Positions 5,833 through 27,994 of a DNA stretch of 32,000 nt are shown here, in pieces; within the stretch, counting starts at the first letter, position 1, and each line of letters begins with the position of its first letter. A model generated the notes under the pieces. That model was given only the letters and a program-made list of their open reading frames with translations, searched no databases and was not told where the DNA came from. The DNA lies in contig JBILLK010000028.1 in assembly GCA_044376115.1 (NCBI GenBank), positions 102,389 to 134,388 on the forward strand. Reading direction: 5' to 3'. This stretch comes from Polyangiaceae bacterium. Lineage in GTDB: Bacteria; Myxococcota_A; Polyangia; Polyangiales; Polyangiaceae. Both the position numbers and the translations under genes were made by a program.

Positions 5833-6522
5833 CTAGCGGGTTCGGATCCCGCCCAGCAAGATCTCAGAAATCAGCCACTTTCGACGCTCCAACGAGGCCC
5901 CGCCGTGTTCCTCCGGGAGCAGGATCCCGAGCACTGGCGCATCCACGATGGGGTAGAGAATCAACGACAGCCCGGCTCGCACCATTTCACTCGGCTGGAC
6001 ATCGGAGCGCAGCTCACCCGTCCCTTGGAGGTTGGTGGTGATCTCCACCACCGCAGAGAGCAGCGCGTGCGTCCGCTCCTGAATGATGCTCACCAGCGTG
6101 CCCGCCCCCGCGAGCACCTCACTGCGCATGATCGCCAGCAGTTTCTGGTGGGCTGCGGAGAAGTCCACCATCACGTCAACGAAACCACGGACGATCCCTT
6201 CCACGTCGCGCTTGGTCTCGAGCACGTGCCAGGAGGCCGTGGACATCTGATCCACGGCGCGCTTCACCACGGCCTCATAAAGCCCGTGCTTGTCGGCGAA
6301 ATAATGATGAATCAGCGCTGGCTGAACCTGCGCACCCACTGCGATCTCACGCAGCCGGGCACCCGCAAAACCGTGGGCCGCAAACTCGGCCTCGGCTGCG
6401 TCTAGAATCCGCTCTTGGGTGAGCGCCGAGCTTCTCTCGCGCTTAGGCGCTGGACCCCGGGCGCTCTGCTGAGCTTCCAGCGTGCGCTTGTCGTCGTCGT
6501 CGTCGCTTTCAGGCGGTGGCAT
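5833..6522 (-). CDS. TetR/AcrR family transcriptional regulator
   Basis: HTH region ERILDAAEAEFAAHGFAGARLREIAVGAQVQPALIHHYFADKHGLYEAV. Overlaps the stop of the upstream di-iron gene by 14 nt, which implies one operon. Confidence 0.85.
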   Translation of the reverse strand: MPPPESDDDDDKRTLEAQQSARGPAPKRERSSALTQERILDAAEAEFAAHGFAGARLREIAVGAQVQPALIHHYFADKHGLYEAVVKRAVDQMSTASWHVLETKRDVEGIVRGFVDVMVDFSAAHQKLLAIMRSEVLAGAGTLVSIIQERTHALLSAVVEITTNLQGTGELRSDVQPSEMVRAGLSLILYPIVDAPVLGILLPEEHGGASLERRKWLISEILLGGIRTR

Positions 6523-7552
6523 CCCACGTTTCGTACTGAATCACGCGCAACTCTTCAAAGCCCTTCCGCACTTTGGGCGTAAGAAGTCCAAGCCGCTTAA
6601 CATTTGGCACGATTTTGGAGAACAGCAGAGTCTGAAAAGTCTGCATGATCGGGCTATTTCGCACCGCGTCGAGGCAGTCGGCCACCGGCAACCCGAGATT
6701 CTCCCAAACCTCTTGCATGAGAAAGCGATCTCGCATTAGGCGCGAGGCCTCGATGATGAACTCCTCCCGGTCGCGCAGCTCCGACTCGGACATGTCGTCG
6801 TAGACCCCGCGCAAGGAGAGGACGCCAAACGCAACATGGCGCGACTCATCGAGCATGATGCGATGAACGATGTCGCGGATCAGCGGCTCGTTCGAGGTCT
6901 GGGAGATGATGCCAAACGCGGCGAGCGCCAAGCCCTCTACCATGATCTGCATGCCCAAGAACTTCAGGTCCCAGCGGGTTTCACGCAGGATCTCGTCGAG
7001 CAGTTGCTTGAGGTGCGGCGAGACCGGGTACGTCAGCTCGATCTTCTCACGCAAGTAACGCTCATAGGCCTCGACGTGCCGCGCCTCATCCATCACCTGC
7101 GAAGCGGCGTAGAGCTTGGCCTCGGCGTCAGGCACCGAGCACACGATCTGCGACGTGGCGAGCAATGCACCCTGCTCACCGTGCAGGAAGTTCGACAACA
7201 AGTAGGAGGACGCGTGCCGCCGAACTTCGGGCAACTCACGCTTGGAGAGCCGGTTCCACACGTCCGTCCCGAAGATCGGGATGAACTGATCCGGCACATT
7301 CTCCGCCTGAGGATCCACCGGCGTTCCCCACGCAAGCTCGGTCTTGGCGTTCCACTGATGGTCCTTCGCCTTCTCGTAGAGCGCTCGCAGATCAGCGCGG
7401 CCGTCGTAGCCCAGCGTGAAAGCCGTATCCAACTCGGAGCGAAGCCAGTCCACCCCAACAGGCTCCGCATCGTTCTGAGCGCGCAGCGTTCGACGCGGTT
7501 CACTCGGGCGGGGAACGGGAATCGTTGGAACGAACTTCTCGGCTGCGCTCAT
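6509..7552 (-). CDS. Ferritin-like di-iron (AurF / R2-like) oxygenase family protein
   Basis: Two carboxylate-bridged di-iron signatures, DEARHVEAYERY and DESRHVAFG, plus MVEGLALAAF helices. AGGAGG RBS upstream of the ATG. Confidence 0.7.
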   Translation of the reverse strand: MSAAEKFVPTIPVPRPSEPRRTLRAQNDAEPVGVDWLRSELDTAFTLGYDGRADLRALYEKAKDHQWNAKTELAWGTPVDPQAENVPDQFIPIFGTDVWNRLSKRELPEVRRHASSYLLSNFLHGEQGALLATSQIVCSVPDAEAKLYAASQVMDEARHVEAYERYLREKIELTYPVSPHLKQLLDEILRETRWDLKFLGMQIMVEGLALAAFGIISQTSNEPLIRDIVHRIMLDESRHVAFGVLSLRGVYDDMSESELRDREEFIIEASRLMRDRFLMQEVWENLGLPVADCLDAVRNSPIMQTFQTLLFSKIVPNVKRLGLLTPKVRKGFEELRVIQYETWDATA

Positions 7553-8879: not shown

Positions 8880-8998
8880 GGCTTGAATCGATGGCAGGTG
8901 TGACGCTGCGTCAAGCGATTGTCCGAAGTCGATGGTTCTCTGACGCCGGAGCCACTTCGTTCATTAAGGCAACCGGAACTCTGGCCGTCAATCAGGAC

Positions 8999-10642
8999 AT
9001 GCGAATTGTAACAAGTCGTTGGTTGGCCGCGATGATGAGCTCTCTCTCGTTTGCGGCTTCGGGATGCGAGCTGATCGCGAACACAGATCGTACGACCATC
9101 GGCGCGGGTGGCGCGGGCGGCGCGGGCGGCGGCGACCAGGTCGGCGGCTCGGCGGGCAGCGTCGCACAAGGCGCGAGTGATGCCGGAGCTGGTGGCGCTG
9201 GCAGCGCCTCTACCAACGGCGGTGGCGGCGCGGGTGCAGCAGGCGGCGACGGTGGCGCGGGCAGTTCCACTGTCGGTGCAGGCGGTGAAGGCGGCGCAGG
9301 CGGTGAAGGCGGTGCGGGCGGTGAAGGCGGTGCGGGCGGTGAAGGCGGCGCAGGCAGTTCCACCGTCGGTGCAGGCGGCGCAGGCGGTGAAGGCGGTGCG
9401 GGCAGTTCCACCGTCGGCGCGGGCGGCGCAGGCGGTGATGGCGGCTCGGGTGGCGCAGGCGGTGCGGGAAGCTCCACCGTCGGCGCGGGTGGCGCAGGCG
9501 GTGAGACGGGCCCTGGCGGCGCAGGCGGTGACGGCGGCGCGGGCAGTTCCACCGTCGGCGCGGGCGGCGCAGGCGGCGCAGGTGGCGCAGGTGGCGCAGG
9601 TGGCGACGGTGGTGCAGGCGGCTCGGGTGGTGTCCCGCCCGGCGAAACGTGCGCCGACCCGATGCTAGTGGAGGTCGTTCTCGACACAACCTACTTCACC
9701 AACGGGGAGATCTTCACGACCTCCACCAACGAGATTGAGAGCTTCTGCACCGACGCCGATCCCAATGTCCCCGACACTTGGGCTGACGTGGTTTACGCAG
9801 TCCAAATCAGTGATGCGTGCAGCGCTTCGTTCGTCGTGCAGAGTTCGACCGACGCGGAGATCTCCTTGCGGTCCGATTGCGGCGTCGAGGAGTACTGCGT
9901 CAACACGGTCGTTGGCGGCGGTGGGCAGGAAAACCTTTCCGTTCCATTGGAGGCGGGCACCTACTTCCTCAACATTCAGTCGGATCTACCCACTCCGTAC
10001 ACCTTGCATATCTACTGCAACACCCCAGCCTGTGGTGACAGCTTCCTGAACCCCGGCGAAGCGTGTGATGATCACAACACCGACGATGGCGATGGCTGTA
10101 GCTCGCTTTGCACGATTGAGGCGGCAGACCCACTGGTTGAGGACTGCGCCAGCGTAAGCCCTCAAGCAGCGCACCAGCTCGTGGCTGGCGCTCAGTTCCT
10201 CACCCCAGTCGGTGCGGCAGCGACCACGCTTGGTGCCCTCGACAACGAGCACGGTACTTGTCAGCTTGCACCCGCTGACCCGGCGGAGTCGTATGCGCCA
10301 GACCAGGTCTACAAGATGCGGTCGCCAGTTCCCGGTATGGCCACGGTCACGCTCGGGCTCGACCCAGCCGGGATCCCTTATTGCGGTGCTGACGTGAACG
10401 CGGAGCCCTCGTTGCCCTATTCATCTGGTTGCTACGACCGCTCGCTCTTCATTCGCGAGGCCGATTGCACCGCGGGAGCTGAGGTCGCCTGCACAGAGGG
10501 AACCAATTGGTGGGACGTGGAACAAGCCCTCATTCCTATCGCCGCAGACACGGACTACTACGTATTCGCCGACGGCTGGTTGGCCGGCTACGGATATGAT
10601 GTTGGTTCGTACACCATCCAAGTCGAGTTTACGCCCGACTGA
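8999..10642 (+). CDS. Lipoprotein with a Gly-rich repeat region and a Myxococcus-type cysteine-rich repeat
   Basis: I prefer the start at the in-frame ATG at 8999 (MRIVTSRWLAAMMSSLSFAASGC, lipobox) over the ORF-track start at 8891, which would leave only 11 bp to the divergent gene. Five GAGSSTVGAGGAGG repeats. CGDSFLNPGEACDDHNTDDGDGCSSLC resembles the Myxococcus cysteine-rich repeat. Confidence 0.7.
   Translation: MRIVTSRWLAAMMSSLSFAASGCELIANTDRTTIGAGGAGGAGGGDQVGGSAGSVAQGASDAGAGGAGSASTNGGGGAGAAGGDGGAGSSTVGAGGEGGAGGEGGAGGEGGAGGEGGAGSSTVGAGGAGGEGGAGSSTVGAGGAGGDGGSGGAGGAGSSTVGAGGAGGETGPGGAGGDGGAGSSTVGAGGAGGAGGAGGAGGDGGAGGSGGVPPGETCADPMLVEVVLDTTYFTNGEIFTTSTNEIESFCTDADPNVPDTWADVVYAVQISDACSASFVVQSSTDAEISLRSDCGVEEYCVNTVVGGGGQENLSVPLEAGTYFLNIQSDLPTPYTLHIYCNTPACGDSFLNPGEACDDHNTDDGDGCSSLCTIEAADPLVEDCASVSPQAAHQLVAGAQFLTPVGAAATTLGALDNEHGTCQLAPADPAESYAPDQVYKMRSPVPGMATVTLGLDPAGIPYCGADVNAEPSLPYSSGCYDRSLFIREADCTAGAEVACTEGTNWWDVEQALIPIAADTDYYVFADGWLAGYGYDVGSYTIQVEFTPD
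9100..9640. repeat. In-gene GC-rich tandem repeats encoding (GAGSSTVGAGGAGGxGG)n
   Basis: The unit gggcagttccaccgtcggcgcgggcggcgcaggcggtga recurs five times with variable numbers of ggcggtgaaggcggtgcg subunits between copies. Confidence 0.75.
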
Positions 10643-20042: not shown

Positions 20043-20735
20043 CTACTCGGTCGGTGGATCGGTGTTGCGTGCGGTCTCCAGCTTGGCCTTCGGCGTAACC
20101 GGGTCCACTTCGCGAGAGCCACCGTCGATCGCGTCAACGATGTACACGATCGGGCTAGCGAGGAAGGCCGTGTCCACTTGCAGCGCCAGGACGAAGGAGC
20201 TCTGGCGTCGATCGTCCAAGCCCACGCGCGCTTGTGCGACGAGTCCGAAGGACATGACGTAGCCATCGCTGTCGTAGCTGCGGCTTCCGAAGAATAGCGT
20301 GCTGGCTATGCCAGCCTGGGCGTCGAAGTCGTCGTCCGCAACTCGAACGTACGGGCCTACCGAGAGCACCATCGGAAAGGTGTCGAGCACCGGCAGCAGC
20401 AGCGAGACGCCGCCACCGAGCGCAACGTCGTCGAAGGCCTGCGAAAGCGCCTCGAGATACGGCCCGACACCGAAGTCGCGTGTACCAGTACGGCCGAATA
20501 GAACGTCGCCATGGAACCCGACGTGGAAAGCGGGCTCTTCAAATACCTGGGCGTGCTGCCCGCGCGCCGCGACGCCTGCGACCAAGCCAACACTCGCCTG
20601 CGGCTCGGCCTGAGCGAAGGCTGGCCAAAGCAAGCTTACTGCCAGACTCAGGATCGCCCCCACGGGGCATCCCAGCTGGGAACAGGCCCTGGGCGGGGGC
20701 CGTTCCTCGATTTTCCGCTGCTGGGCAAGAGTCAT
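20043..20735 (-). CDS. Hypothetical secreted protein, possibly beta-barrel
   Basis: I prefer the start at the internal Met (MTLAQQRK...), because the longest ORF (to 20786) would abut the zapA start. Signal-like ILSLAVSLLWPAFAQA, then alternating hydrophobic pattern. Confidence 0.5.
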   Translation of the reverse strand: MTLAQQRKIEERPPPRACSQLGCPVGAILSLAVSLLWPAFAQAEPQASVGLVAGVAARGQHAQVFEEPAFHVGFHGDVLFGRTGTRDFGVGPYLEALSQAFDDVALGGGVSLLLPVLDTFPMVLSVGPYVRVADDDFDAQAGIASTLFFGSRSYDSDGYVMSFGLVAQARVGLDDRRQSSFVLALQVDTAFLASPIVYIVDAIDGGSREVDPVTPKAKLETARNTDPPTE

Positions 20736-20784
20736 TCGGTTCACTGCATCCACCGTCGATGGAGATGACGCGCCTCGTGGTAGC

Positions 20785-21102
20785 ATGCCCGAGATGGCAG
20801 CACGCCCTGTTGAGCTACGCGTTGGGGGACAGTCCTATCGTGTCGTCTCATCTGCGAGTGCCGAGGATCTAGAGCGCCTCGCCACGGTGGTGGACGAGAA
20901 GCTTACCTCGCTGGTTCCCCCTGGAAAGCCCCTCAGTCCTCAGAGCCTGCTGTTGGTCGCCATGGCGCTCGCACACGACGTCGAAGTAGAGCGCGCAAAG
21001 GCCGAACGGGTACGTTCTCATTCACGGTCTGCCTTGCGCACGATGCTAGGCGAGGTGGAGGAGACCTTGGCGCTTGCCGATCAGGCCCTTCCACGGACCT
21101 AA
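20785..21102 (+). CDS. zapA: Cell division protein ZapA-like
   Basis: VELRVGGQSYRVVSSASAEDLERLATVVDEKL and LLLVAMALAHDV match the ZapA fold pattern, about 100 aa. Alternative ATG at 20794. Confidence 0.65.
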   Translation: MPEMAARPVELRVGGQSYRVVSSASAEDLERLATVVDEKLTSLVPPGKPLSPQSLLLVAMALAHDVEVERAKAERVRSHSRSALRTMLGEVEETLALADQALPRT

Positions 21103-21104
21103 CG

Positions 21105-22214
21105 TTGAGCGGGATGAAGTTCCTGACGGAGGAGCTCGAGTCGCTACGAGCTCAGAATCTGCTTCGGGAGACGGCTGCTACACCACCGGCCGGTTTGGTG
21201 CTTTGCTCGAATGACTACCTTGGGTTAGCCGAAGTCCCAGCCACTCGAGCCGCGGGGCTACCCGGCGGTTCTGGGGCCGCAGCCTTGGTAACCGGCTATC
21301 ACGAGGCTCATCGGGTCGCCGAAGCTGCGTTGGCGGAGTGGGTCGGGCTACCAGCATCGCTGCTGTTCAGCTCGGGCTACTGCGCCAACGTTGGGGTCGT
21401 CAGCGCGTTGGCCGGCCCGCCCGACCTCGTGCTTTCGGATCGCCTCAACCACGCCTCGATCATTGACGGCTGTCGCCTTTCGCGCGCGACAGTGCAGGTG
21501 TTCGAACATTGCTCGCTGGACGACGCCACCCGTCAGCTCGAACAACAGCGCTCAAAGTTTCGCCGTGCGTTCGTTGTCACTGAAAGCTACTTCGGCATGG
21601 ATGCAACCACCGCCGATCTTCGGTCGCTTCGGGCGTTGTGCGATCGTTACGACGCCGCTTTGATCGTCGATGAGGCTCATTCGCTCGGCGTGTTTGGCTC
21701 AGAGGGCGGGGGGCTTTGTCGGTCGGTGGGAGTCGTTCCCGACGTTCTGATTGGTACGCTGGGCAAGGCAGTAGGCCTTCATGGTGCGTTCGCGGCTGGG
21801 CGCAAAGAGCTCCGGACCTTTCTGTGGAATCGCGCACGCAGCTTTGTGTTTTCGACCGCAACCAGTCCGGCCTCGGCGGCTGAGATTCCTGAGCGGGTCC
21901 AGCTTGTGCGGGCGGCGGACGACCGGCGCAGGGATCTGCTGGATTGGTCAGCCGAGATCCGCACTGTGCTGGCTAGCGGCGGACAAGAGGTTTTTGGAGA
22001 CGGGCCGATCATTCCCTGGATCTTGGGCGAGGCCACGTCAGCCCTCGCTGTTCAGCGGCGACTCCTTGAGCAGGGTGTCGTTGGGCTCGCCATCCGACCT
22101 CCGACGGTCCCGCTTGGGCAGGCCCGGGTTCGGCTTGCAGCTCGTGCAGGGCTCACTCACGAGCAACGTCGGCTCGCCCGTCAGGCGTTGACGATCGTCG
22201 CGCAGACCGGTTGA
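21105..22214 (+). CDS. bioF: 8-amino-7-oxononanoate synthase-like PLP enzyme (alpha-oxoamine synthase family)
   Basis: CSNDYLGLA, DEAHSLGVFG and GTLGKA (PLP Lys) motifs. 369 aa fits BioF better than Kbl or SPT. TTG start at 21105 or ATG at 21114. Confidence 0.7.
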   Translation: MSGMKFLTEELESLRAQNLLRETAATPPAGLVLCSNDYLGLAEVPATRAAGLPGGSGAAALVTGYHEAHRVAEAALAEWVGLPASLLFSSGYCANVGVVSALAGPPDLVLSDRLNHASIIDGCRLSRATVQVFEHCSLDDATRQLEQQRSKFRRAFVVTESYFGMDATTADLRSLRALCDRYDAALIVDEAHSLGVFGSEGGGLCRSVGVVPDVLIGTLGKAVGLHGAFAAGRKELRTFLWNRARSFVFSTATSPASAAEIPERVQLVRAADDRRRDLLDWSAEIRTVLASGGQEVFGDGPIIPWILGEATSALAVQRRLLEQGVVGLAIRPPTVPLGQARVRLAARAGLTHEQRRLARQALTIVAQTG

Positions 22215-22290
22215 CGGCGCTACAGCACCCGCAACGGTTATCGGCTCGTCGTGCCTGTGAGGCTGCACGTCGGTGCCGGTGTACAACTGA

Positions 22291-22320
22291 CGCTGGTTCG
22301 ATGACCAGCGTTATTTGCGC
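22291..22320 (+). terminator. Rho-independent terminator candidate after bioF
   Basis: CGCTGGT-tcgatg-ACCAGCG, a 7-bp stem, followed by TTATTTGCGCTTT. Confidence 0.5.
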
Positions 22321-22491
22321 TTTGGCTGTTGTCGTTTTGAGGCCGACGATGTCGTGGCCACGTTACGGCTGCGGCTTTCCACGTGGCTCGCGCGTTGGTT
22401 CACGTGGTGGGAGGGAGGGTTTTGAGGTGCTGCGGGAGACGGCACGCGAAAAGGCTGGGCCTCGGTACTCGCGCGGGCGCGATCCGGCGGT

Positions 22492-22990
22492 GTTGCCGTT
22501 CCCGAGCCCTCCCAAAATCACTGCCAGGGTCTCAATAATTGACGCGACCGACCCGGCTCCGGCCTGAGGGCCCGCCCCGCTGCCTCGATCCTGCGTTCCA
22601 AAATCACTGCCAGGGTCTTAACAATCCGGCTCCGGCCCTCAGGGCCACTCCCACTGCCTCGATCGGGCGTTGGCCCCGTTCCCAAGCCCTCCCAAAATCA
22701 CTGCCAGGGTCTTAACAATCACCCCGGACATCCGGCTCTAGCCCTCAGGGCCACTCCCACTGCCTCGATCGGGCGTTGGCCCCGTTCCCAAGCCCTCCCA
22801 AAATCACTGCCCGGGCCTTAACAATTGAGCGGCTGACCCGGCCCCGGCCCTCGAGGCCCCGCCCGCTGCGTCGGTCGGGCGTTGGCCTCGTTCCCCTGTC
22901 CCCGAGATCGTAGCCAAGGGTCTTAACAATTGAGCCTCGAGGGCTGGGGCCGCCCCGCCCGCTGCGTCGATCGGGCGTTGGCCTCGTTCA
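22492..22990. repeat. Tandem repeat array A: five units plus a partial sixth, 74-106 bp each, non-coding
   Basis: Units start at about 22492, 22595, 22669, 22775, 22881 and 22977 (partial). Conserved blocks are GTTGGCCCCGTTCCCAAGCCCTCCCAAAATCACTGCCAGGGTCTTAACAAT, a GC palindrome (GGCCCTCAGGGCC or CCTCGAGG variant), and CTGCCTCGATCGGGC. Confidence 0.85.
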
Positions 22991-23007
22991 GTCCGGCTTG
23001 GGCTAAC

Positions 23008-23023
23008 TGTTTCACGTGAAACT
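23008..23023. promoter_or_regulatory. parS: parS site 1 (ParB-binding centromere-like palindrome)
   Basis: TGTTTCACGTGAAACT matches 15 of 16 positions of the canonical TGTTNCACGTGAAACA. The 14-bp core GTTTCACGTGAAAC is a perfect palindrome. Confidence 0.8.
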
Positions 23024-23771
23024 GATCGTTGGTCTTCTCCTGGCAGCTCGCCTCATCGCCCGACACTTTTCTACGTCGCGGTCGAACCGGATGCATCGCG
23101 AGCGCGGCAACTCTAGAACGCGCGTAGCCACAACCGTGACCCTATTAGCCCGGTTCGCGACTCAGCACCGACTTCGCTCACCCCAGGACGCAACGCCAAC
23201 CACGAGCCGCCGCCCCGGACCTAGCCATCAATCAACCGCACAACCATGATGTCGACACCGCGTCCCGTTGACACGTTCAACGGATTCTCACGGGAGGTCG
23301 ATCTGACACGGGGCCGGGGACTCCTCGGAACGAAGCGCGTAACCGTTTTTAGCTGGAGGCGGTTCGGAGCCTCTTCGCGGTAGAGCGACAACGGCACCAC
23401 CTCGAAACTAGTGAGCTAGAACCGTTCGACAACCGGGCAAGGCGATAGCTTTGTTGGCCCGTAAGGCACACCCCGCGTCGGAATCCCATCCGTGGCCCAC
23501 CCCACTGCGCAAAGGTGCGCTCGACCAACTAACCCTATTGCTGGTCGAACGGTGTGCGCGCCAATCCCAGGGCACCAGCATTCCGCGCTCAAACCAGCTT
23601 GAACGTATTCACAAGAATCTCGCTGAAGCTTGCCTGTACGTCGCTCTATCAGTCGTCGTGCTTCCACCAATACGAAGCTGCTGAACCGTTCTGCTCAAGC
23701 CCAAGCCACGACATGAGCGGTCTGCTGAATCGCCAGCCTCCGGCAACCAACGGTATCCGATTATCACCCAA

Positions 23772-24100
23772 GGTGGATGCAGTTGGCAGAATGACTCGAA
23801 GTCCCTGCGCGGGAGCCGGTCTGAGGTCCCAAAGGCCATCGACTTGGACGAGATATCAGATCGAATGTCGACGCAATGACGCGAGCTCGAGTGGAAGACT
23901 CCGCGGAGGTCTCCGGAGCGCCGAAGGCACGAACTAATGACTCGAGCCTTCTTCCGAAGAACCGGTCGATGGCCCCTTTGAAACTTCTAGTTTGGCACGA
24001 GTGATTCCGCTGAAGGCGGATGCAGTGGACAGAATGACTCAGGCCTTCTTCCGAAGAACCGGCCGATGGCCCTTTGAAACTTCTAGTTTGGCACGAGTGA
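23772..24100. repeat. Repeat family B: two near-identical 68-69 bp units 97 bp apart, plus a diverged upstream copy
   Basis: AATGACTC..GCCTTCTTCCGAAGAACCGG.CGATGGCCC(C)TTTGAAACTTCTAGTTTGGCACGAGTGA at 23936-24004 and 24033-24100. The leader GG(T/C)GGATGCAGT..CAGAATGACTC occurs at 23772-23797 and 24015-24040. Confidence 0.8.
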
Positions 24101-24256
24101 ATACTCTGCCTCGGTACTACTCTCGTTCGGGATACGTGCGACCGAAACGGTCGGATTCTTGTTGCCCCCATACGACTTCTAGCTGCCGCGAATTGCACCA
24201 CCGCTCCGACGCCCTCCTAACGAAAACCCCGTACGACTTGCCTTCCACAGTGACGC

Positions 24257-24272
24257 TGTTTCACGTGCAACA
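24257..24272. promoter_or_regulatory. parS: parS site 2, one core mismatch
   Basis: TGTTTCACGTGCAACA matches 15 of 16 positions of the consensus (A to C at position 12). Confidence 0.65.
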
Positions 24273-24563
24273 GCCCCGTATAGTTCCCAGCCACCCCCCG
24301 TCCAACAACGTCCACGACGTGCCGTGAGTGGTTTAACGAGCTGCAGCCGGCGGCTCGGTCCAATGAGTACCGGCCCGTGGCCCACCCCATCGCCTTATCC
24401 TCACCGTCGACTACCTATCGGCGCCGACCTCGCTAACCACGACCCGTTGCTCCCGTTCGACGTTCTCCAGAGCGCCAAGAACCCAGGCTCAAGCTAAGTC
24501 CGGAGACCAAACTGCGCCCACACCGACGCCAATACGCCAGTCCCGACAGTGACGGCCAAGCTG

Positions 24564-24608
24564 GCGGGCTAGTCCAGTCGCTGACCAGCGGGCTAGTCCA
24601 GTCGCTGA
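24564..24608. repeat. 21-bp exact tandem duplication with a 3-nt spacer
   Basis: GCGGGCTAGTCCAGTCGCTGA at 24564-24584 and again at 24588-24608. Confidence 0.85.
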
Positions 24609-25130
24609 GCATAGGGATTGACCCTCGCGCCGCGAATCCTCTTCGGCCCGGGCGTTCCTGCGTTAAACGTTCGGTTCCGAAAGCGCGGTTTGACTTAGAT
24701 GTCGACGGTCGATGCTGCCGTTCACCTCCAACCGGTAAGTCGCGGGCGGCTTAGGGCAAGCCGAAGGCACCTGGCGATGGTATGCCGGGTCGAGCGGTCG
24801 ACGCCCGCAGCGTCGAAGCTCGGTGCCCTTGGTACGGCAACCAACGATGCACTGACCGCCCACTAGTGAGATGGCAAACCACTCGGTTCCCTCTACGCCG
24901 CTATTGCGCCCAGCCGGTGCAGCCTCCCGATTGTGGCCACTGCCACCTAGCATGTCTCCAGTTGCAGTGTCGCTGCCAGAAACCGATGCGCGGGACTCGC
25001 GAAGCTAAGTCCAACACCCCCGCGACGGCCAGACCACGGCGGGGCCCGAAAGCGGCCAACCAACCTAGGCTCTGCCTGCAGAAAATACCTACTCCACGTG
25101 CGAACTGGGCCAGGTCCGAAACCTCGACAC

Positions 25131-25146
25131 TGTTTCACGTGAAACC
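25131..25146. promoter_or_regulatory. parS: parS site 3
   Basis: TGTTTCACGTGAAACC matches 15 of 16. It shares the 17-mer ACTGTTTCACGTGAAAC with site 1. Confidence 0.8.
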
Positions 25147-25187
25147 GCCCTCGGGACCCTAAACGACACCACCAGCGCCGAGATGAA

Positions 25188-25835
25188 TCAGCGAACCTGC
25201 CGAAGGGTGCCTCGATCCATCTCCCAGGTCGTCGGATTCAACGCCTCAAACCGGGCCGGATCATGGGCGACGACCACCACTACGGCATCGGCAATTACCC
25301 CGCGCACCGCGCCCAACAAAAGCTCAAGTCCGGCCGAATCCAAACCTGTCGTCGGCTCATCCAAAAGCACCAAACTCGGCCGGTGCATCAACGCTCTGGC
25401 GAGCGCGACTCGTTGCTTCTGACCCCTCGAATTGGTCCTTAAAGGTCGCTCCGCAAACGCCCGAAGCTGAAACCGCTCGCGTAACTCCACCCAAGCCGCC
25501 TCTGGATCCAGCCCATAGAACTCCGCTGCCAAGCGAAGGTTCTGCTGCCCACTGAGGTCCGGGTAAACCAACGCTTCGTGCGACAGCCAACCGATCTCGG
25601 CCCGCACCTCCGAATCATCGGCCTCGAACGGCTCAAACCTAACCTGCCCCGAGGTGGCCTTGACAGTAGTTCCGAGTACCCCGAGCAACGTGCTCTTACC
25701 CGACCCATTGGCCCCAACGACGACGGAAAGCTGGCCGGACTCAAACACCGCCGACGCTTCACGGAGCGCAACCGTCGCGCCAAACCGCTTGGTCACTCGC
25801 TCTAAAACCACCCGCGTTACACGCCGCTCGGTCAT
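25188..25835 (-). CDS. ABC transporter ATP-binding protein (CcmA-like small ATPase), no permease gene adjacent
   Basis: Walker A GANGSGKST, signature-like NSRGQKQRVALARAL, Walker B LVLLDEPTTGLD. I prefer the ATG at 25835, which overlaps the kinase stop as ATGA. Confidence 0.85.
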   Translation of the reverse strand: MTERRVTRVVLERVTKRFGATVALREASAVFESGQLSVVVGANGSGKSTLLGVLGTTVKATSGQVRFEPFEADDSEVRAEIGWLSHEALVYPDLSGQQNLRLAAEFYGLDPEAAWVELRERFQLRAFAERPLRTNSRGQKQRVALARALMHRPSLVLLDEPTTGLDSAGLELLLGAVRGVIADAVVVVVAHDPARFEALNPTTWEMDRGTLRQVR

Positions 25836-27568
25836 CGCGACCGTCGCTCCCATTCCTCAATCAGGAACGGAGCATCCACCACCGTCAGGTCGTTCTCTTC
25901 CACCGTAGGTGTGTCGTCACCGACCGACCCAGCGTCTATCAACTGCGTCGGTTCCTCGTCCGAGGCCGAAGCCGAAAACGTTGAATCGGCAGTCTCAAAC
26001 GCCATCATCGATTGCGGGAGCGGAGGCGGAGGCGGCTCCGTCCTCCGCCTCGCCGTCACGCCCCCCGCCAACCGGCTGGGAACCCTGGGAACCGTAGACG
26101 GCGCAACCAAACTCCCTCGCGCCGGATCAACAACCGCCTCCGCAGGCCGACCCACAGCGCGCTCAACTACCTTGCCACCCTCTGCACCTTCGGTCGACTT
26201 GAGCCGCTCCGTCCCACGTCCCGGACGCCCTTCGCGGAGATCGGGACGAGGCACCTCCGACTCCACCGCTCGCGGCTGAACCGTTCTCCGTGACGCAGGC
26301 GAAGGCGTCGGCGGGTGCGCCACCGCTTCCACCCCGACAACGACCTGAACTGGCTTGACGTCATGCGGAACCGCCTGCCGAGCCCGCGTTTGCCGATCGC
26401 CATCGTCCGTCTGCACCATCCGCTCAGTAGCCCGAGGCGCCGCTATTGGAGCCCTGCGGGAACCGACGGACTCTCCGGACCCTCGCTCACTTGCTCGCGA
26501 AACGACTCGCTGCGCCTGCCTGAACGGTACCAACGCTTTCGCAAACTCTCGTGCCGTGGCGAACCGCTCGTCGCGTTTCTTCGCTAGAGCTCGATGGATC
26601 GCATTGCTCAACCCAACTGGTATCCGCGGATTCACGACAGCCGCAGGCTCGGGATTCCCCGTAAGTATCTGAACGAGCAGGGCGTTGTAATTCTTCGCGA
26701 TGAACGGCCTGGTTCCCGTGAGCGCCTCATAGAGCAACACACCAAGCCCCCATACATCAACACGACCATCTAGCTGGCGCTCACCCATCGCCTGCTCGGG
26801 TGCCATATAATAAGGTGTACCCATCACCATGCCTGTCCGAGTGAGATGATGTGGTTGATCATCCCCAATGGTGGCCTTCGATATGCCAAAATCCAGCACC
26901 TTCGCGAGCACCCCTCCCTCGGCCCCAAGGAAGATATTGTCTGGCTTCATGTCACGGTGAATGACACCGATGGCATGCGCCGCATCCAACGCGGCAAGCG
27001 CCTGCAGCGCGACCTCAACCCCCAGCTCCACCGCGATGCGCCCCTCGCGCTCCAGCCGATTGGCCAACGTTTCGCCACTAAGCCTCTCCATCACCAGGTA
27101 GGGCTGACCACCGGAGACAACCTCGCCAAACTCGAGCACGTTGCAGATATTGGGATGCGTGATTCGGGACACTACGGTCGCCTCGTGCCGCATCCGAGCA
27201 ACCGAGTCCTTCTTCTCCGCGTGCTCGGGTTTGAGCACCTTCAGCGCGACTCGAACCCCCGTGCGCTCCGAAAGCGCCTCGTAGACCGTTCCCATCCCGC
27301 CTTGCCCCAACACCCCAAGCAAACGAAAACGCCCACGCAGCGCTTGCTTGAGGTCATCCTCCGATGATGACTGCGGGCTTACCTTCTTCGCTATGGGTGC
27401 GGGTCGCGTTTGACGCGCGATCGCACGACGCTCTGCAGGCCGCTCACGCTCTGCGGGTCGCTCACGCTCTGCGGACCGATCGCGCTCCGCACCAATTGCA
27501 AGGCCTGTCGTCGGGCATACCGCCCTCGACGCCACATGCAACAGCCCGCAGTGGGGACACCGAATCAT
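25832..27568 (-). CDS. Ser/Thr protein kinase with an N-terminal zinc ribbon and a Pro/Arg-rich C-terminal tail
   Basis: MIRCPHCGLLHVASRAVCPTTG, then GQGGMGTVYEA, VALKVLK, HRDMKPDN, DFGISK and GTPYYMAPEQ. No TM segment seen. Confidence 0.85.
   Translation of the reverse strand: MIRCPHCGLLHVASRAVCPTTGLAIGAERDRSAERERPAERERPAERRAIARQTRPAPIAKKVSPQSSSEDDLKQALRGRFRLLGVLGQGGMGTVYEALSERTGVRVALKVLKPEHAEKKDSVARMRHEATVVSRITHPNICNVLEFGEVVSGGQPYLVMERLSGETLANRLEREGRIAVELGVEVALQALAALDAAHAIGVIHRDMKPDNIFLGAEGGVLAKVLDFGISKATIGDDQPHHLTRTGMVMGTPYYMAPEQAMGERQLDGRVDVWGLGVLLYEALTGTRPFIAKNYNALLVQILTGNPEPAAVVNPRIPVGLSNAIHRALAKKRDERFATAREFAKALVPFRQAQRVVSRASERGSGESVGSRRAPIAAPRATERMVQTDDGDRQTRARQAVPHDVKPVQVVVGVEAVAHPPTPSPASRRTVQPRAVESEVPRPDLREGRPGRGTERLKSTEGAEGGKVVERAVGRPAEAVVDPARGSLVAPSTVPRVPSRLAGGVTARRRTEPPPPPLPQSMMAFETADSTFSASASDEEPTQLIDAGSVGDDTPTVEENDLTVVDAPFLIEEWERRSR
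27441..27476. repeat. 18-bp tandem repeat within the kinase 5' region, encoding (ERERPA)n
   Basis: cgctcacgctctgcgggt followed by cgctcacgctctgcggac, with more diverged flanking copies on both sides. Confidence 0.75.
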
Positions 27569-27569
27569 C

Positions 27570-27994
27570 TCTTCCTGCGCACCTTCGCGACCTTGAGCCT
27601 ACAGGGAGCAAACCCATTCGCGAAGAACCGTTTCCAACTGACCACGTCGCATCCAACCCGCACGACGGTTAACTACCTGTGGGAAGCCTCCGGACCAGGC
27701 CTGGTGAAAACCCCCTCTACCCGGCCAACGACAAACTGTTCACACCTTCTCAACGCCCAGTCCCAATTTGAGACCCCAACAAGCCCGCTCCTCCAACACC
27801 CTTATCCAATTGTATTTAATAGTCTTTTCCCCTTATCCCCAGAATCCACAGGACCTACTACTACGACTTCTAGATATCTCATTGATCTCACTTTGAGACG
27901 AAGAGCACCTGTTGGTCTCAGTCGTAGCGTGAATGTCCAACACGCTCCTTTTCTCTAGAACAACCTGCTAAAGCCATTCCCAGGAGTTCAACGG
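27570..27994. promoter_or_regulatory. Divergent promoter region upstream of dnaN with an AT-rich patch and DnaA-box-like 9-mers (possible oriC or DnaA-regulated dnaN promoter)
   Basis: TTATCCAAT (27802-27810), TTATCCCCA (27833-27841) and GAATCCACA (27842-27850) against the consensus TTATCCACA. AT-rich ATTGTATTTAATAGTCTTTT (27809-27828). AGGAG RBS before the ATG at 27995. Confidence 0.4.

Follow-up and report, generated by a model that had tools for sequence, protein, structure and literature searches.

A non-coding, parS-bearing interval near the predicted replication origin of a freshwater Polyangiaceae bacterium is a probable centromere region

Within a 32,000-nucleotide stretch of DNA from an uncultured freshwater Polyangiaceae bacterium (the window), positions 22215–25187 form a non-coding region (no strand assigned) between the convergent genes of a bioF-like protein (+ strand) and an ABC ATPase (− strand). 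This interval carries three parS sites and is probably an origin-proximal centromere region with fast-evolving filler DNA, where ParB is predicted to load. The assignment follows from the conserved gene order across the family, from the presence of a parS core in 38 of 39 corresponding gaps, and from a distance of about 2.4 kb to the predicted oriC. A dedicated centromere or ParB-loading platform had been among the options of a first, sequence-only reading of this DNA, and it is the one supported here, as parS is the only family-wide element at the syntenic position and the locus lies near the predicted oriC.

The description of the interval as a gene desert of about 3 kb, with short open reading frames of at most 145 aa that lack the G/C third-position bias of real genes, was borne out. 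The longest ORF within 22215–25187 indeed comprises 145 aa, the gene caller placed zero genes there, and the GC content by codon phase is flat, with differences between maximum and minimum of mostly ≤0.12 compared to 0.2–0.39 in the flanking genes. A Pfam scan of all six frames, run on X-masked frames, gave no match at E ≤ 1, and none of the ORFs of the interval is conserved in the sister species. A crude and noisy test for the longest non-periodic run placed this run in the gap at only 15 of 38 loci. CTAG tetranucleotides, which had been noted as frequent, are enriched with 13 occurrences (4.4 per kb) compared to 0.65 per kb in the rest of the window, but the cause is a depletion in coding DNA (19 observed, 34 expected from a Markov model). 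In the interval itself the count is near what the Markov model predicts for it (13 observed, 9.8 expected), so that the contrast marks non-coding DNA and not foreign composition. The claim of a distinct composition does not hold for the overall GC content, which is 0.62 in the interval and 0.63 in the window. Nor are the other intergenic gaps limited to about 210 bp, since the gap between the kinase gene and dnaN measures 426 bp (700 bp with the start chosen by the gene caller).

Parts of the interval were recovered at 99.6–100% identity in independent assemblies from other samples, and the sister species contains a 3047-bp counterpart on one single contig. The interval is therefore real and not an assembly artefact. 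Close to its left edge, a hairpin at 22290–22325 (+ strand), read from the sequence as ACGCTGGT-TCGATG-ACCAGCGT followed by a T-rich tail, is the probable terminator of bioF. A simple terminator scan did not call it. A hairpin is also kept at the bioF-terminator position of the sister species, and the block containing it (22262–22342, aligned to positions 40–120 of the sister gap g175 with 72% identity) is the sole unique sequence that can be aligned between the two species.

The three predicted ParB-binding parS sites (no strand assigned) are spread over about 2.1 kb, and each deviates from the consensus by one mismatch. parS1 (TGTTTCACGTGAAACT) is located at 23008–23023 and parS2 (TGTTTCACGTGCAACA) at 24257–24272, whose mismatch affects the right arm, 1 nt beyond the central CACGTG; parS3 (TGTTTCACGTGAAACC) is found at 25131–25146, 42 nt from the stop codon of the ABC ATPase gene. 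From shuffled sequences 0.07 sites would be expected, and the window contains no other match at up to three mismatches. A further 14 kb of the contig contain none either, leaving these sites as the only ones in 46 kb; parAB genes were not found in the available 46 kb. parS2 and parS3 share 25-nt flanks with 88% identity (repeat family D6), which suggests a duplication. Two weak, degenerate parS-like half sites centred on CACGTG can be made out at 22380–22408 (no strand assigned). At an equal offset from the bioF stop codon (about 189), CACGTG also occurs in the sister species, and the half sites are possibly a relic of the parS that other genera carry in the 5′ part of bioD. The repeats of the interval further include a 24-nt direct repeat in two copies (family D9, 24564–24611, + strand). 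The three parS sites and two tandem-repeat families noticed in the sequence-only reading were thus all found again.

The gene order hyp-zapA-bioF-(bioD)-gap-ABC-kinase-dnaN-recF is kept in Sorangium, Minicystis, Chondromyces, Polyangium, Byssovorax and many MAGs, and the gap is a family-wide feature with a length of 129 bp to 5.7 kb among relatives. Across the compared Polyangiaceae loci it is this syntenic gap, between bioF or bioD and the ABC gene, that holds parS; the parS core is the sole k-mer common to 38 of the 39 gaps and is rare in the flanks of about 18 kb. In most relatives bioD occupies the gap position, but it is missing in the present clade, and tblastn with BioD against the interval returned noise only, without a remnant. 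A 212-aa ORF called in the L177 lineage was rejected as bioD, being Arg/Pro-rich junk. Non-coding gaps of 1.8–3 kb that lack bioD and carry three parS sites occur in at least three species belonging to two ABC-identity groups (86% and 68%); of a fourth species (L172) only 154 nt of the gap are visible, and this part is free of parS. A metagenome scan with the ABC ATPase was dominated by hits to generic Walker and signature motifs, and close relatives were not among its results.

Comparison with syntenic relatives, as proposed in the sequence-only reading, separates conserved from variable parts. Despite 81% identity in coding DNA, the interval cannot be aligned with that of the sister species except for the parS sites, two repeat families and the terminator block. 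Apart from these elements most of its sequence appears to be unconstrained. Growth of the gap by duplication is indicated by the shared flanks of parS2 and parS3, by a segmental duplication of roughly 460 nt, parS included, in the L177 lineage, and by one 106-nt unit of the first array that appears to be missing in another sample (L011). Tandem arrays are present in only 5 of 38 gaps and were dropped as a family-wide property.

The first array (array 1, 22444–22990, + strand) lies just upstream of parS1 and consists of about five tandem units of 86–106 nt, each with the motif CCCAAAATCACTGCCAG. Motif copies are located at 22511–22527, 22597–22613, 22691–22707 and, with one mismatch, 22797–22813 (all + strand). 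Six copies were counted in each of L175 and L012, compared to four in the window; L175 and L012 are both assemblies of the same sister species (their gaps are about 91% identical overall and 97–100% outside the repeat arrays), so that the three sequences are not three independent observations. Between the two species 21 of 21 nt of the motif are identical, and the copies keep the same strand and the same place relative to parS1. Their spacings lie near multiples of 10.5 bp (mean deviation 1.17 compared to 2.59 for random spacings, P about 0.002), in a post hoc statistic on a small sample of 9 distinct spacings. With same-strand direct repeats, a conserved motif and helical phasing, array 1 resembles an iteron-type array. 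It is likely more than filler and, judged from these features, may bind a protein.

Plasmids employ arrays of this type as centromeres and origins, such as parC of R1 and the Rep iterons. Array 1 resembles them in that a motif of about 17 nt is repeated 4–6 times on the same strand, in the near-helical spacing and in its position in a segregation or origin region. In contrast, it belongs to a chromosome, occurs in a single genus-level clade and has long and variable spacings (22–106 bp), where those of the plasmids are fixed at 11 or 22 bp; a gene for a cognate ParR, ParG or Rep protein was not found. A translated array 1 query had no match among 5.8 billion proteins, in a search that did not recover the query itself either. 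The 93-nt array of L015 was rejected as a homologue, its alignment score being no better than that of shuffled sequences. Inspection also rejected the motif as a minus-strand sigma-54 promoter, as the −12 GC is absent and is not conserved in L012.

The second array (array 2, 23745–24103, − strand) is built from two to three copies of a hairpin-rich unit of about 96 nt: a full copy at 23944–24040, a partial one at 24042–24103 and degenerate copies down to 23745. The unit is retained in three species, and the sister species has five to six copies in opposite orientation. With regard to a dispersed, REP- or MITE-like repeat, one partial copy was detected outside the gap in 46 kb of this genome, upstream of zapA; this conserved segment (20731–20775, + strand), outside the interval proper, is a homologue of nt 1–45 of the unit and identical to a sister-species unit at 39 of 45 positions. 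Neither the array 1 nor the array 2 motif was found in 1.5 Mb of other Polyangiaceae loci. A CRISPR array was rejected on architecture, since whole units of 106 and 96 nt repeat without unique spacers. The retention of both arrays between species shows the "filler" to be in part non-neutral.

For the centromere region we propose the following mode of action, which draws on established ParABS biology. Loaded at each of the parS sites as CTP-dependent clamps, ParB dimers would slide along the interval and the flanking DNA and build a partition complex that would be moved by ParA and would load SMC. The extra DNA would be filler, formed once bioD was gone from the locus and later enlarged via local tandem and segmental duplication; its role would be at most that of a neutral spacing for ParB spreading. 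In the relative L016 three parS sites are packed in about 130 bp, hence the centromere reading alone does not explain a length of 3 kb.

Another explanation is that the interval is inert junk left by lost genes (bioD and others) or by foreign DNA, with parS alone functional and the arrays as neutral satellites. The loss of bioD from a position it holds in most relatives, the wide range of gap lengths, the lack of constraint on most of the sequence and the variation of the arrays in copy number and orientation all fit such an origin. However, no remnant of BioD or of another Pfam domain is detectable, similarity to plasmid or phage DNA was not found, and the GC content of the interval equals that of the genome. 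Accordingly, neither the decayed foreign DNA nor the simple pseudogene considered in the sequence-only reading found support. In addition, bioD-less gaps with three parS sites persist in the at least three species mentioned above, and neutral evolution would hardly yield an array 1 motif so exactly conserved and phased. We regard inert junk as unlikely. A further view takes the 3 kb as functional DNA linking segregation, origin region and division, that is, as a composite cis-acting organising region in which array 1 would be an iteron-type binding array of a lineage-specific DNA-binding protein and array 2 a set of operator copies shared with the zapA promoter. It is favoured by an array 1 motif conserved without exception amid unalignable DNA, with strand, position and phased spacing retained, by the occurrence of the array 2 unit in three species and by the match of its 5′ 45 nt to the zapA segment. 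On the other hand, both motifs are limited to one genus-level clade and absent from the 1.5 Mb of other Polyangiaceae loci that do bear parS gaps, and few gaps hold tandem arrays at all. From one species to another, array 2 changes its orientation and its place in the gap, and in the window its copy has decayed hairpins. Moreover, concerted evolution of satellites can mimic conservation, and there is no candidate binding protein for either motif. Such a composite region is unlikely. Bolder, and distinctly improbable in our view, is a small "regional centromere", with ParB sites flanked by functional species-specific satellites, array 1 as landing pad of a lineage-specific organiser protein of the centromere or origin region, and array 2 multiplying an operator shared with the zapA promoter. 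If it were true, segregation of the chromosome and regulation of the Z-ring could be linked by a single factor.

Non-coding RNAs, for instance structured RNAs made in tandem from the minus strand of array 2, are very unlikely as the content of the interval. The array 2 unit does form hairpins, and in the sister species some of these have cUUCGg loops on one strand; 90% of cells in the unit are paired, one pair shows a compensatory GC↔AU change, and the array 2 dimer folds at z = −3.4. Yet the opposite strand is nearly equal (z = −2.9), covariation is limited to 1 of 16–21 pairs, and many changes break pairs among the nine closely related copies. Over the whole interval the mean folding z-score is −0.16 (144 windows), promoter and terminator scans remained at shuffle level, and conservation between species does not extend to the unique parts. 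The Rfam search suggested in the sequence-only reading was run on the interval and matched no family at gathering score, E-value mode giving one chance-level match (E = 0.5). The structured or small RNAs raised there are therefore not supported. That the interval could be a replication origin, part of one or a DnaA-titrating locus is hardly conceivable. Its length, its repeats, the lack of genes and the proximity of dnaN would suit an origin, as would a GC skew that changes sign near its left edge; this local switch at about 22.5 kb counts against the main reading, since a simple origin at 27.8 kb would not predict it. As an oriC the interval was nevertheless rejected on architecture. It offers isolated one-mismatch DnaA-box-like 9-mers at 23761 and 24395 instead of a DnaA-box cluster, and with a lowest GC content of 0.57 it has no AT-rich unwinding element. 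The conserved, box-bearing and AT-rich region is instead that between the kinase gene and dnaN.

This region (27569–27994, no strand assigned), outside the interval, is the predicted oriC of the window. In Sorangium cellulosum So ce56 an oriC was predicted by Ori-Finder between the kinase gene sce8163 and dnaN (Gao & Zhang 2008, PMC2650636). Positions 27569–27994 are homologous to it, so that the oriC given here is a homology-based prediction which itself starts from a predicted oriC. They contain the DnaA-box-like motifs TTATCCCCA and GAATCCACA together with an AT-rich stretch, and the kinase–dnaN region is conserved over four species with a mean column identity of 79%. The interval shares this neighbourhood but is distinct from the predicted oriC, lying 2.4 kb further left and lacking a DnaA-box cluster, and the parS sites are about 2.4–4.6 kb away from the predicted oriC.

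Compared to chromosomal ParABS centromeres with origin-proximal parS sites (Livny et al. 2007, as cited in PMC3899335), the interval is similar in the canonical 16-bp palindrome TGTTTCACGTGAAACA, in the low number of sites, in the proximity to the predicted origin and dnaN and in the synteny among relatives. Many bacteria have parS inside genes, as is the case for bioD of Sorangium and Polyangium, whereas the sites of the present clade lie in a gene-free gap of 1.8–3 kb between convergent genes, and parAB is not nearby within the available 46 kb. In Myxococcus xanthus, 22–24 parS sites are found in about 3 kb, about 4 kb upstream of parA and 30–35 kb from ori (PMC3899335, PMC3778016). Both members of the phylum thus have a repeat-built, parS-bearing stretch of about 3 kb in which the number of sites was apparently raised by local duplication. 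The interval, however, is not a dense tandem cluster of the M. xanthus type: it holds only three sites, not one per repeat unit, and the 106-nt and 96-nt units are without parS. Its consensus is TGTTTCACGTGAAACA and not TGTTCCACGTGGAACG, and it is situated 2–5 kb from the predicted oriC, not about 30 kb, and not beside parAB. With the exception of array 1, the interval belongs to a known kind of element, the ordinary parS regions, and does not form a new class.

As a predicted centromere region, the interval would place the centromere in one defined gap beside the predicted oriC, and by synteny this would apply to the whole family including Sorangium. To our knowledge, chromosome segregation has so far not been studied in Polyangiaceae. 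The locus also shows how a centromere region can evolve: parS is kept, bioD is lost from the locus, and the remaining DNA turns over fast by tandem and segmental duplication. Finally, the phased and conserved 17-nt array beside parS1 provides a concrete bait for a new binding protein of the centromere or origin region.

The 141-kb lake-metagenome contig of an uncultured Polyangiaceae member from which the window derives carries a non-coding gap at 22215-25187, toward which a bioF-like aminotransferase gene (+ strand, end at 22214) and an ABC ATPase gene (- strand, stop at 25188) converge. As the sequence-only reading had claimed, it holds no real genes: the longest ORF comprises 145 aa, codon-phase GC is flat compared to differences of 0.2-0.39 in the neighbouring genes, and translated comparison with the sister species (ABC 86% identical; L175, L174, L012) revealed no ORF conserved at the protein level. 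The sole matches were repeats, in several frames and on both strands. The description as compositionally distinct applies only in part, as the gap does not differ from the remaining window in overall GC (0.62 vs 0.63), whereas codon-phase bias is absent and CTAG is denser. The latter was correctly described as frequent, with 13 occurrences or 4.4/kb vs 0.65/kb in the rest of the window; this count is as expected from the gap's own Markov model (9.8), and avoidance of the tetranucleotide is a property of the coding DNA (19 observed vs 34 expected). Since parts of the gap were recovered at 99.6-100% identity on contigs from other samples, and the 3047-bp counterpart in the sister species lies on a single contig, the gap is not an assembly artefact. 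Elsewhere in the window, long coding tandem repeats with periods of 9 nt and 48-66 nt (9239-9630, GC 0.74) lie within ORF 8891-10642, which shows a weak DUF4215 match and probably encodes a Gly/Ala-rich repetitive protein.

The only parS matches in the window are the three already noticed in the gap, parS1 at 23008, parS2 at 24257 and parS3 at 25131, each with one mismatch (0.07 expected). Synteny is conserved, with the order hyp-zapA-bioF-(bioD)-gap-ABC(-)-Ser/Thr kinase(-)-dnaN-recF-gyrB recurring in Sorangium, Minicystis, Chondromyces, Polyangium, Byssovorax and many MAGs, and in each lineage compared parS falls between bioF and ABC. When 39 bioF-ABC gaps were compared by k-mers without prior bias, the parS core emerged as the sole motif in common; it was found in 38 of them and is rare in their ~18-kb flanks. 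In most genera bioF is followed by bioD (PF13500; for example L020 3903-4589 and L018 6522-7181), with parS inside the 5' part of bioD (relatives L018-L049) and a second parS directly before the ABC stop. The Sorangium site lies about 10 nt beyond the bioF stop and about 8 nt inside the reading frame of bioD, those of Polyangium, Minicystis and Byssovorax about 170-210 nt beyond the bioF stop. Neither bioD nor a detectable remnant of it was found at the window's locus. The same bioD-less arrangement occurs in two related lineages, namely the sister species with a 3.05-kb gap and three parS sites, and the more distant, widespread freshwater lineage L177-L182 (ABC 68%), whose 1.8-kb non-coding gap (L177 10640-12459, also L178-L182) contains three parS sites and (CGTGCC)n microsatellites. 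A 212-aa ORF called in the L177 gap was rejected as Arg/Pro-rich junk. L172, a third species and nearer to the window (ABC 88%), has a contig that ends 154 nt beyond the ABC stop. Across the family the gap measures between 129 bp and 5.7 kb, and several further lineages have more than 1.2 kb without coding signal at this position.

Coding DNA of the sister species is 81% identical to that of the window. Alignment of the gap, in contrast, returned four kinds of local match only: the parS sites, the motif of array 1, the unit of array 2 and an 81-nt block directly after bioF, which includes a hairpin with a T-rich tail and is probably the bioF terminator. Of the natures proposed for the interval, a structured or small RNA finds no support, as Rfam gave no match at the gathering score over 22215-25187, the folding scan had a mean z of -0.16 over 144 windows, and promoter and terminator consensus matches stayed at shuffle level. 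A remnant of foreign DNA is likewise not supported, as no plasmid or phage similarity was found. The few local matches together with these negative searches indicate that most of the 3 kb is unconstrained in sequence. Growth of the gap by duplication is directly evidenced. parS2 and parS3 share 25 nt of flanking sequence, a segment of ~460 nt including parS was duplicated in the L177 lineage, and the same species from another sample (L011) is identical to the window minus exactly one 106-nt unit (22635-22740), which may reflect true copy-number variation or assembly collapse at the contig end. Both tandem-repeat families reported previously were recovered, and a 24-nt repeat with two copies within the gap raises their number to three. 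The gap of another Polyangiaceae MAG (L015, about 6230-7180) has its own array of about 10 ~93-nt units, which was rejected as a homologue of the window's arrays.

The kinase-dnaN intergenic region (27569-27994) is homologous to the oriC that Ori-Finder predicted in Sorangium So ce56 (PMC2650636) and is the predicted origin here. It is GC-poor (0.54) with an AT-rich stretch and contains the DnaA-box-like 9-mers TTATCCCCA and GAATCCACA; no DnaA-box cluster was found in the gap. With a mean column identity of 79% over four species, L177 among them, it serves as internal control: constrained non-coding DNA stays alignable here, whereas the gap does not. The parS sites lie 2.4-4.6 kb from it. Depending on the ambiguous start of the Ser/Thr kinase gene (25832-27568; 578 aa as longest ORF vs 487 aa by the gene caller), the putative oriC gap measures 426 bp or 700 bp, so that the 210 bp previously given as maximum for the other intergenic gaps does not hold. 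Across the window, cumulative GC skew reaches its maximum at about 22500 (+ to -), which does not fit an origin of simple signature at 27.8 kb; gene orientation may account for most of this pattern. The gap is C-rich on the + strand.

Array 1 (22444-22990) consists of about five copies of a 106-nt unit. Its 17-nt motif CCCAAAATCACTGCCAG occurs four times in the window, six times in L175 and at least six times in L012, the latter two being assemblies of one species. All copies share one strand and occupy the stretch from the bioF terminator to parS1; the last ends 70-190 nt short of the latter. Between the species 21 nt are identical, the remaining unit sequence is entirely different, and unit length is 86-106 nt vs 22-54 nt. 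The nine distinct spacings fall near multiples of 10.5 bp, the deviation minimum among the periods tried (mean deviation 1.17 vs 2.59 random, P about 0.002; post hoc, small sample). Such phasing would be expected of protein-binding sites on one helix face. No copy of the motif was found in 1.5 Mb covering other Polyangiaceae loci.

Array 2 (23745-24103, - strand) comprises 2-3 copies of a unit of roughly 96 nt, one of them full and the rest partial. The sister species has an array of 5-6 copies in reversed orientation, and in a third species the unit adjoins the ABC stop. The unit holds hairpins, and in the sister species some of these are capped by cUUCGg loops; compensatory change was seen at one pair only, and folding is about equal on both strands. 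A covariance model of the unit matched window 20729-20826, directly upstream of zapA (E=0.003), and weakly the corresponding region of the sister species. In the window, segment 20731-20775 (GAGTCATTCGGTTCACTGCATCCACCGTCGATGGAGATGAC...) upstream of zapA shares 39/45 positions with the 5' end of the unit (nt 1-45) and is conserved at the corresponding place in the sister species.

The remaining proposal, a centromere or ParB-loading platform, is supported by the near-universal parS core next to the predicted oriC. Judged from sequence, the gap is quite likely the origin-proximal parS region of this chromosome and thus belongs to a known kind of element. It resembles the M. xanthus cluster of 22-24 parS sites within 3 kb (PMC3899335, PMC3778016), but here parS sites are far less numerous and the repeat units contain none. 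The one unusual feature is array 1, with array 2 standing out less. The position of the parS region is conserved throughout the family, and in this clade bioD would have been lost, followed by padding with fast-evolving, duplication-prone non-coding DNA.
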